A stretch of 64,000 nt of DNA. Source: an uncultured Gammaproteobacteria bacterium (lineage in GTDB: Bacteria; Patescibacteriota; Patescibacteriia; GWA2-47-26). The translations under genes were made by a program, and so were the position numbers. This document shows, one piece after another, positions 47,603-47,765 of this stretch (position 1 is its first letter; every line of letters begins with the position of its first letter). The DNA is taken from positions 21,127 through 85,126 of the forward strand of contig CAZHIP010000002.1 in assembly GCA_964532925.1 (NCBI GenBank). Direction: 5' to 3'. The notes below the pieces were generated by a model that was given only the letters and a program-made list of their open reading frames with translations, ran no database searches and had not been told where the DNA came from.

Positions 47603-47630
47603 AAAAGCCTGTCTTCGGACGGGCTTTTTT
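47603..47630 (+). terminator. Terminator with TTCG tetraloop after tRNA-Asn
   Basis: aaaaagcctgtcttcggacgggctttttt. Confidence 0.65.
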
Positions 47631-47734
47631 AGTAGAGGAGCAAGCAAACAATTTTGCTTACGGTGGGATTCGAAGGGCGCGAGTGCGCGCAGCGCCCAGG
47701 CCTGAGTCGGAGCGATGGGAAACCACCCTCGGAG
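47631..47734 (+). repeat. tRNA-linked structured GC-rich element, copy 1: conserved core 47670–47720, ending in a mimic of the tRNA-Asn 3' end
   Basis: Core tcgaagggcgcgagtgcgcgcagcgcccaggcctgagtcggagcgatggga recurs at 63597–63671; its tail aaccaccctcggag mirrors atcccaccctcggag of tRNA-Asn. Confidence 0.5.
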
Positions 47735-47741
47735 CCAAAAA

Positions 47742-47765
47742 ACCCACCGCAAGGTGGGTTTTTTC
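47742..47765 (+). terminator. Second terminator closing the element
   Basis: aaaaaacccaccgcaaggtgggtttttt. Confidence 0.55.

Follow-up and report, generated by a model that had tools for sequence, protein, structure and literature searches.

Short structured insertions behind tRNA genes look like a very small, undescribed tRNA-targeting mobile element

A 64,000-nucleotide stretch of contig CAZHIP010000002.1 (the window) raises the question of what the structured, GC-rich segment downstream of its tRNA-Asn gene is, and why the core of that segment returns behind tRNA-Trp. The original prediction, made from the letters of the stretch, had seen in it a pseudo-tRNA duplicate with a structured insert in its T-loop, as expected of an element that integrates into tRNA 3' ends or of a small tRNA-linked ncRNA with its own terminator. 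tRNA genes are classic landing pads of genomic islands and prophages, and the known elements carry their own integrase and measure kilobases; to our knowledge, few mobile elements are known in the genome-reduced Patescibacteria. Our analysis indicates that the two segments (copy 1 at tRNA-Asn, copy 2 at tRNA-Trp) are, on balance, probably copies of a non-autonomous insertion element of 117-143 bp that has no open reading frame (ORF), targets the 3' part of tRNA genes in Patescibacteria and is moved in trans. It looks like a very small, undescribed tRNA-targeting mobile element.

This reading is carried by close relatives in which the corresponding sites are empty. The enolase encoded beside copy 1 has a 91% identical homologue (P0001) on contigs L020, L021 and L022, where rpoD, the same tRNA-Asn gene with its CCA, a terminator and eno follow one another with nothing in between; tRNA-Asn runs directly into CCAAAAAACCCACC..GGTGGGTTTTTTCGAT, and then comes eno. 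The near-identical CCAAAAAACCCACCatacGGTGGGTTTTTTCGAT directly after tRNA-Asn in these three contigs differs from the window only in the hairpin loop (ATAC instead of GCAA), and the alignment of the window with L020 shows one 134-column gap between otherwise conserved flanks. At copy 2, the upstream NRAMP gene has a 97% identical homologue (P0121) on L125; there, tRNA-Trp is directly followed by tttagagcctcgcccttgtggcggggttttaaatttga, the exact sequence that stands after the repeat in the window, and the alignment again shows one gap, of 140 columns. These results show that the inserted DNA comprises the first terminator, the spacer and the core, that the mimic of the tRNA 3' end and the second terminator sit where the original tRNA 3' end and terminator were, and that the insertion regenerates the tRNA 3' end, for tRNA-Asn without the genome-encoded CCA. 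It also follows that both insertions are younger than the split from the sequenced close relatives. Two terminators do bracket the segment after tRNA-Asn, as had been predicted, and single insertions against empty sites bear out the footprint of an element integrating into the 3' part of a tRNA gene; the second terminator, which had been assigned to the element, is the native one of the tRNA, as L020 shows. Three further enolase loci of other Paceibacterota held a single tRNA gene (tRNA-Asn in L369) and no further insertions. Right after the common tRNA-Trp terminator, the window (63728-64000) and L125 (1359-1591) carry unrelated sequence; this breakpoint is strain-specific and separate from the 140-bp insertion.

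After integration the tRNA is intact and the stretch from T-loop to discriminator is present twice, the upstream copy completing the functional tRNA and the downstream copy being followed by the native CCA and terminator (Table 1). This layout is the geometry of the left and right attachment sites (attL/attR) of tRNA-integrating islands, shrunk to ~130 bp, and partial tRNA sequence on both sides is a recognised hallmark of integrase-mediated insertion at tRNA genes (10.1101/2020.12.28.424599). At copy 1, the 12-nt perfect repeat CCACCCTCGGAG is found only at 47589 and 47723 (0.11 expected by chance; two matches in 0 of 100 shuffles). It makes the placement of the insert ambiguous, MAFFT putting the 134 bp at 47589-47722. 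The full downstream repeat, GAAACCACC CTCGGAG, has two changes relative to GAATCCCACC. What had been described as a copy of the last 15 nt of tRNA-Asn is thus a perfect repeat over 12 nt, but one that occupies the native position of the tRNA end. The tRNA-Trp 3'-end repeat GATTCCnnnnGCCCCTGC lies at 63530 and 63670, and copy 2 ends in GATTCCGTACGCCCCTGC, a near-copy of the tRNA-Trp 3' end GATTCCTACCGCCCCTGC. Comparison of window positions 47600-47602 with L020 positions 216-222 shows that tRNA-Asn has lost its encoded CCA (...CTCGGAG-CCA in L020, ...CTCGGAG-GAA in the window) and now depends on a CCA-adding enzyme. The first terminator came with the insertion and now serves as the terminator of tRNA-Asn. 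A simple terminator scan listed neither of the two copy-1 terminators, both read from the sequence, probably because of A and T tracts pairing with each other.

Table 1. Positions of the two insertions and their parts in the window, and of a divergent relative in L001
Feature	Position	Strand	Basis or remark
tRNA-Asn(GTT), intact	47528..47600	+	ARAGORN; Rfam tRNA, 75.6 bits
Copy 1 insertion, 134 bp	47601..47734	+	Absent from closest relative (alignment with L020)
Terminator 1, AAAAA GCCTGTC TTCG GACGGGC TTTTTT	47602..47630	+	Read from sequence; empty site without it
Spacer with pre-hairpin AAGCAAA CAAT TTTGCTT at 47642-47659	47636..47661	+	Preceded by AGAGGAG
P1 5' strand and junction, GGTGGGATTC GAA	47662..47674	+	Read from sequence and alignment
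P2 hairpin GGGCGC / GAGTGCGCGCA / GCGCCC, stem 47675-80 / 47692-97, 11-nt loop	47675..47697	+	
P3 hairpin CCT-GA-GT-CGGA-GC-GA-TGG	47701..47718	+	Tandem GA/GA internal loop, invariant U.G pair
P1 3' strand and acceptor 3' strand, GAAACCACC CTCGGAG	47719..47734	+	Downstream repeat of tRNA-Asn 3' end
Native CCA and native tRNA-Asn terminator AAAAAA CCCACC GCAA GGTGGG TTTTTT	47735..47764	+	Second terminator 47737-47764
tRNA-Trp(CCA), intact	63476..63547	+	ARAGORN; Rfam tRNA model
Copy 2 insertion, 140 bp	63548..63687	+	Absent from L125; covariance model R1 match 63592-63676, 77.9 bits
Copy 2 parts: terminator 1'; spacer; P1 5' strand GAAATC; GAA	63550-63575 (terminator 1'); 63593-98 (P1 5' strand)	+	
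Copy 2 parts, continued: P2; P3; GATTCCGTACGCCCCTGC	63602-63648; 63652-63669; 63670-87	+	
Native tRNA-Trp 3' flank and terminator	63688..63722	+	Identical to L125; terminator scan match 63699-63714
Divergent relative at tRNA-His	L001 3150-3311	minus	3'-end repeat scan

The two insertions share one core. The window contains a 26-nt segment, CAGCGCCCAGGCCYGAGTCGGAGCGA, exactly two times, at 47690 and 63641, with a chance expectation of 0.00; the same core at two tRNAs is not chance, and the repeats of the tRNA 3' ends also go far beyond it. Copy 2 has the same parts as copy 1 plus a nested hairpin of 24 nt in the loop of P2, which repeats the GAG..GCGCA loop. The 51-nt core that had been said to recur almost identically is therefore exact over 26 nt but does not form one block. 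The predicted stem GGGCGC/GCGCCC closing an 11-nt loop is present in copy 1.

Further cores were sought by exact 20-23-mers, all other matches being chance ones in coding DNA. The core was found in three GTDB genomes, namely L001 (Portnoybacteria), L003 (Parcubacteria SG8_24) and L002 (a compositionally mixed metagenome-assembled genome, MAG), and in five metagenome contigs, including L007 (identical to L003), L012, L013 and L019. Six other contigs and the window copies give eight distinct sequences with one fold, so that there are more than two copies, at other tRNAs as well, and with covariation between them. All copies lie in tRNA orientation, in units of 117-143 bp, and the target tRNA species are Asn, Trp, Ser and Met, with a divergent relative at His. 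In L003 and L007 the target is tRNA-Met, and the order is tRNA, terminator, 15 nt, GGGATCGAA, core and a perfect 49-bp repeat, which in L003 comprises the tRNA from the T-loop onward, CCA and the terminator. In L013, at least two identical units of 117 bp (1210-1467) come after tRNA-Ser(GCT), while L001 holds at least two 123-bp units and then an assembly gap, at a site that is a Ser-like partial tRNA (6640-6900). Adjacency to a tRNA with a cognate 3' mimic, expected of every copy, can be seen at most loci but not at two: the L002 copy ends like tRNA-Trp, yet the 4.8 kb upstream of it hold no tRNA, and L012 has an Asn-type 3' end, CCA and terminator on a contig that starts ~80 nt before the core, leaving the upstream tRNA outside it. 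Repeat lengths vary (12 bp perfect or 16-17 imperfect, 18, 49 and at least 41 bp); the duplication has a fixed left edge, at about T-loop position 57, and a variable right edge, ranging from the discriminator base to the terminator's end.

The tandem units of L001 and L013 have lengths that are multiples of three, and three frames run through the arrays without a stop, which could lead gene callers to predict repeat proteins that do not exist; the translated units, compared with a protein database, gave nothing at E<=10. Assemblies break at arrays and copies, the break being an N-gap in L001 and the end of the contig in L012, L013 and L019. The L002 contig, labelled Gammaproteobacteria, shifts from ~68% to ~50% GC between 1-3400 and 3400-7778, and its high-GC part is crowded with overlapping ORFs; this contig may be a chimera, and the taxonomic label of the copy is unreliable. 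Considered as a large island, L002 was uninformative, its upstream genes being metabolic, with no integrase and heterogeneous composition. The element is so far mainly found in Patescibacteria, with one copy in this compositionally mixed MAG.

The eight distinct copies were aligned from the segment antisense to the tRNA to the start of the repeat, and the alignment supports a three-way junction made of helix P1, GAA, helix P2 (GGGCGC/GCGCCC), AGG (also the link between P2 and P3 in copy 1) and helix P3 (CCY-GA-GU-CGGA-GC-GA-NGG). P1 is formed by the antisense segment, complementary to nt 54-65 of T-loop and T-stem, and the downstream tRNA-3' repeat and encloses P2 and P3, with zero spacer between P3 and the P1 3' strand. 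In the alignment 94.4% of cells pair, and 7 of the 18 pairs are changed on both sides; none of 500 shuffles reached the observed values, and controls with slid partners paired only 26-56%. The sequence of P1 differs in each copy while the pairing is kept. P2 is 100% paired in all eight copies, two compensatory pairs producing GGGCAU/AUGCCC in L019, and the Y:N pair of P3 (63:76) is C:G in six copies, U:A in L001 and U:U in copy 1. At one position the P2 loop carries inserted hairpins, four unrelated ones among the copies, and those of copy 2 and L003 repeat the GAG...GCGCA motif. RNAalifold, run blind, returned exactly the same structure. This covariation comes from eight sequences only, and the variation of P1 tracks the T-arm of the target. 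On the complementary strand the fold is weaker (mirrored structure, -18.0 compared with -23.6 kcal/mol; best fold, -21.0 compared with -24.7), which, together with the invariant U.G pair, identifies the tRNA-sense strand as the folded one. The acceptor 3' strand of L001, CTCTTCC, pairs with a GGAAGAG that lies upstream, and P1 with this helix resembles a tRNA minihelix. Several known motifs were considered and rejected: hammerhead and hepatitis delta virus (HDV)-like topologies, threaded by hand and judged by inspection, lack the conserved junction strands and a P1 partner; a kink-turn or C/D-box reading of the GA/GA motif lacks the 3-nt bulge; and a resemblance to dif/Xer sites (GGTGCGCA) covers 8 nt only and was taken as coincidence.

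The antisense segment is complementary to the target. In copy 1, GGTGGGATTC is a 13/13 reverse complement of the T-loop and T-stem 3' strand of tRNA-Asn (TTCGAATCCCACC), and ggtgggattcgaa, the exact reverse complement of tRNA-Asn positions 54-66, builds the closing helix of the element. Against the real tRNA T-loop and T-stem, the segment matches at 9/9 to 13/13 positions in copy 1, L003, L013 and the tRNA-His variant described below. It lies across the duplication's left edge as the complement of TTC|GA(N)UCC.. and so takes in TTC (nt 54-56), which lies outside the downstream repeat. The pre-hairpin in the spacer is element-specific, with homologues in L001 (AGCAAGCCAAATGCTTGGCTTGC), L019 and the tRNA-His variant. 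The 5' part of the segment had been read as degenerate D-, anticodon- and T-arms; instead it consists of the antisense strand and this hairpin (agcaaac..gctt). ARAGORN found no second tRNA in copy 1, and the tRNA model RF00005 matched the region only at 47529-47600, even at E<=10. A pseudo-tRNA duplicate with an insert in its T-loop does not fit, since there is no tRNA 5' half and the real tRNA gene is the target. The tRNA introns reported from Patescibacteria are group I introns in the anticodon loop, at position 35/36, and unrelated to the element.

When the tRNAs of the loci then in hand were scanned for downstream repeats of their own 3' ends, all known copies were recovered and one new one appeared, at tRNA-His of L001. 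It has the pre-hairpin homologue, then AGAATCGAA, which is complementary to the T-loop and T-stem of this tRNA, a GC-rich module that differs but is recognisably related (common CCAGGCC.GAG..G.AGCGA) and a perfect 18-nt repeat, GATTCTCTCTGGTCACCC, of the tRNA-His 3' end. The variant folds well (z = -5.3), and an internal GGUGGCCAG pairs with its acceptor strand. It escaped the 23-mer scan as well as covariance model R1, which, run over 185 kb of Patescibacteria loci, found known copies only. The family is thus wider than eight near-identical cores. A gene for the CCA-adding enzyme (PolyA_pol head, 860-2320) lies near the tRNA-His copy in L001, probably by coincidence.

How might such a unit move? 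A circular element with a copy of the tRNA 3' end that recombined with the tRNA gene would produce the observed geometry. The recombinase would be encoded elsewhere and act in trans, a tyrosine-type integrase acting on the tRNA-like repeat being the simplest candidate. The structured core would be an essential cis-acting module: a small RNA, if transcription reads through from the tRNA promoter, or else a single strand whose fold is recognised at integration. The antisense segment may tie each copy to its cognate tRNA. In copy 1 and copy 2, the sequence suggests that the T-stem part of the downstream repeat is element-derived and that the joint lies in the 8-12 identical bases of the acceptor strand.

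Several observations weigh against this reading. No integrase or other candidate enzyme was found: the inserts hold no ORF; the ORFs scanned in window 1-52 kb have no integrase/recombinase, transposase or reverse transcriptase (RT) domain; for 52-63 kb no recombinase-type domain is in the precomputed Pfam list of syntenic L020 genes, the sole source there; and the neighbourhoods of the copies in L001, L007, L012 and L019 likewise showed no recombinase, transposase or RT. The tyrosine integrase that the original prediction had in mind did not turn up within this scope. Nor did an autonomous partner with the same core among the sequences of IMG/VR, GenBank phages and PLSDB plasmids: four pieces of the core, run as exact patterns against IMG/VR, gave, on a fuzzy-matching check, only chance matches in GC-rich phages, and blastn against GenBank phages and PLSDB plasmids gave no real match. 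A scan for consensus promoters found none convincing ahead of the core, the only good one being that of tRNA-Asn (47476-47503), and the apparently strong terminator upstream of the core leaves its expression as RNA unproven. Folded as single sequences, both window copies do no better than shuffles (z = -0.03 and +0.50). A double-stranded circle of 134 bp is an awkward recombination substrate. In both window copies the two changes of the downstream repeat relative to the native sequence lie inside the T-stem, with flanks otherwise identical to relatives; rapid mutation of the repeat after insertion may be an alternative explanation for them. Finally, the invariance of the core is partly an ascertainment effect of the exact 20-23-mer search, which yielded only eight near-identical cores. 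Rfam at gathering thresholds found tRNAs only across the whole window, and in a local E-value scan of 47450-47850 the best non-tRNA matches were far below threshold, the tRNA-His variant having no match; our literature searches found no description of such an element.

Two details point beyond a plain double-stranded attachment site, namely the antisense segment lying across the edge of the duplication and the fold abutting the repeat without a spacer. It is possible, though unlikely, that base pairing across the T-loop, in the tRNA gene or in the tRNA, directs the element to its target, with the three-way junction as a new ribozyme or as the handle of a recombinase or RT; it would then be among the smallest guide-carrying mobile elements, retargetable by changing ~10 nt. 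That the mechanism is truly new has about one chance in five. Set against movement by an integrase in trans, a nucleic-acid-guided or ribozyme-type element is a doubtful alternative. Its single-stranded form (RNA, or single-stranded DNA like CTX-phage attP and integron attC) would find the tRNA gene by T-loop pairing, and a recombinase or RT would use the fold, or the RNA would insert itself by a step like reverse splicing and be reverse transcribed, tandem units being multimeric intermediates as in retrozymes. The antisense segment does span the putative insertion point (TTC|GAAUCCCACC), and in copy 1 it matches the real tRNA (13/13 positions) better than its own downstream strand (8 paired). 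The zero-spacer junction, the pairing of the acceptor 3' strand to element sequence in L001 and the tRNA-His variant, the strand asymmetry given by the invariant U.G pair and the lack of a nearby recombinase in the scanned ORFs all fit. However, no RT, known ribozyme or intron family was detected and neither promoter nor expression supports it; moreover, the T-arm is itself palindromic, so an antisense copy can arise trivially, and repeat lengths of 12-49+ bp fit an ordinary identity segment.

The remaining explanations dispense with a dedicated enzyme or with mobility of the unit itself. DNA taken up by naturally competent host bacteria could recombine via the conserved tRNA gene on one side and the short tRNA-3' repeat on the other (homology-facilitated illegitimate recombination), with the core as hitch-hiking cargo. 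We consider this quite improbable: flanks that are exactly tRNA homology, a right junction within 8-12 bp of identity, imperfect downstream repeats that fit donor sequence up to a microhomology crossover, and an element-borne flank in L013 that resembles the native one with 3 differences would all agree with it, but it explains neither the jumps between different tRNA species, nor the cognate antisense segment in every copy, nor the strongly conserved fold. A deletion scar, in which a larger prophage or genomic island at the tRNA was later lost and only the sequence near attL and attR stayed behind, is very improbable. At least five independent loci each carry a unit of 117-143 bp in which the parts stand in the same order and no piece of a gene is present, identical units occur in tandem, covariation follows an RNA-like pattern, the core is in none of the phages or plasmids searched, and the genes upstream in L002 are metabolic, without an integrase. 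These outweigh, in our view, the attL/attR geometry, the divergence of the window and L125 past the tRNA-Trp terminator, which marks that site as recombinationally active, and the tRNA-free 4.8 kb upstream of the L002 core, all of which a scar would account for. We give hardly any credence to a non-mobile host gene for a small RNA, to a decoy resembling a tRNA or to a tRNA duplicate that has degenerated and carries a T-loop insert, even though the fold is conserved, the acceptor-like helix of L001 stacks on P1 into a tRNA-like minihelix, and CCA follows the repeat in copy 1 and L012; close relatives lack the element at both loci, a polymorphism that argues against a housekeeping role, its distribution is sporadic and rare, and it has no tRNA 5' half, no match to a tRNA model and no promoter that we could find.

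If the element is indeed a mobile unit acted on in trans, a recently active stretch of ~130 bp rebuilds the tRNA, brings a terminator and carries a fold paired to target sequence. Since one core is found at Asn, Trp, Ser, Met and His genes, the family lends itself as a compact system for studying how specificity for tRNA sites is encoded and retargeted. It also bears on annotation, since it makes partial-tRNA repeats, removes an encoded CCA, breaks assemblies and possibly gives rise to miscalled ORFs.

Elsewhere in the window, a GC-rich stretch of ~370 nt without a recognised gene (6116-6500) directly follows tRNA-Thr (6042-6115), overlapped by a minus-strand ORF (6032-6388) with no Pfam match. 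It has no Rfam match at E<=1 and no repeat of the tRNA-Thr 3' end, and could be another kind of tRNA-adjacent insertion or an unknown RNA. Two ORFs of 483 and 275 aa at 1674-4042 have no Pfam domain, and this segment, with a GC of 0.59 against the usual 0.41-0.50 (0.44-0.50 in most 2-kb windows), may be foreign. The window also carries two iPGM-type phosphoglycerate mutase genes (14323-15891 and 49158-50663) and, besides the enolase gene at 47854-49137, a second enolase-like gene at 60852-62129 that is also in L020; this doubling is an unusual redundancy for a small genome.

Among known systems, the element shares most with the islands, prophages and tycheposons that integrate into tRNA genes by tyrosine recombinases: insertion at the tRNA 3' part, co-orientation, restoration of the tRNA by an element-borne 3' end (10.1101/2020.12.28.424599), partial-tRNA direct repeats at both ends, empty sites in relatives and tandem copies. 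Unlike these, it measures 117-143 bp instead of kilobases, has no integrase or any other gene, carries a structured module abutting the repeat together with a T-arm antisense segment, and brings one core family to at least five tRNA species. Like MITEs (miniature inverted-repeat transposable elements) and cis-mobilizable elements (CIMEs), which consist of att sites only, it is short, ORF-less, multi-copy and presumably served by an enzyme in trans. Compared with MITEs, it has neither terminal inverted repeats nor a target duplication of fixed length, its ends are a terminator and the core, it is strictly specific for tRNA 3' ends, and no parent element was found. A segment complementary to the target at the insertion point is also known from the exon- and intron-binding sites (EBS/IBS) of group II introns, the bridge RNA of IS110 and the guides of IS200/IS605; the likeness is in logic only, since no associated protein gene such as a recombinase or RT was found near any copy, the element is far smaller and without an Rfam match, and a long target repeat is kept. 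With integron attC and the attP(+) of CTX phage it has in common an imperfect hairpin with a paired stem that copies the double-stranded target, a terminal hairpin that varies, asymmetry between the strands and cassette-like arrays, whereas no association with IntI or Xer is shown, sequence conservation is much higher than in attC, and the target is a tRNA gene. The tRNA-related short interspersed nuclear elements (SINEs) and retrozymes of eukaryotes are likewise small, non-coding, structured, tRNA-linked and tandem-capable; here, however, the host is a bacterium, neither an RT partner nor poly(A) nor a ribozyme motif was found, and tRNA genes are the target and not the origin. Overall, the element behaves like a tRNA-integrating island stripped down to its att region and a structured module.

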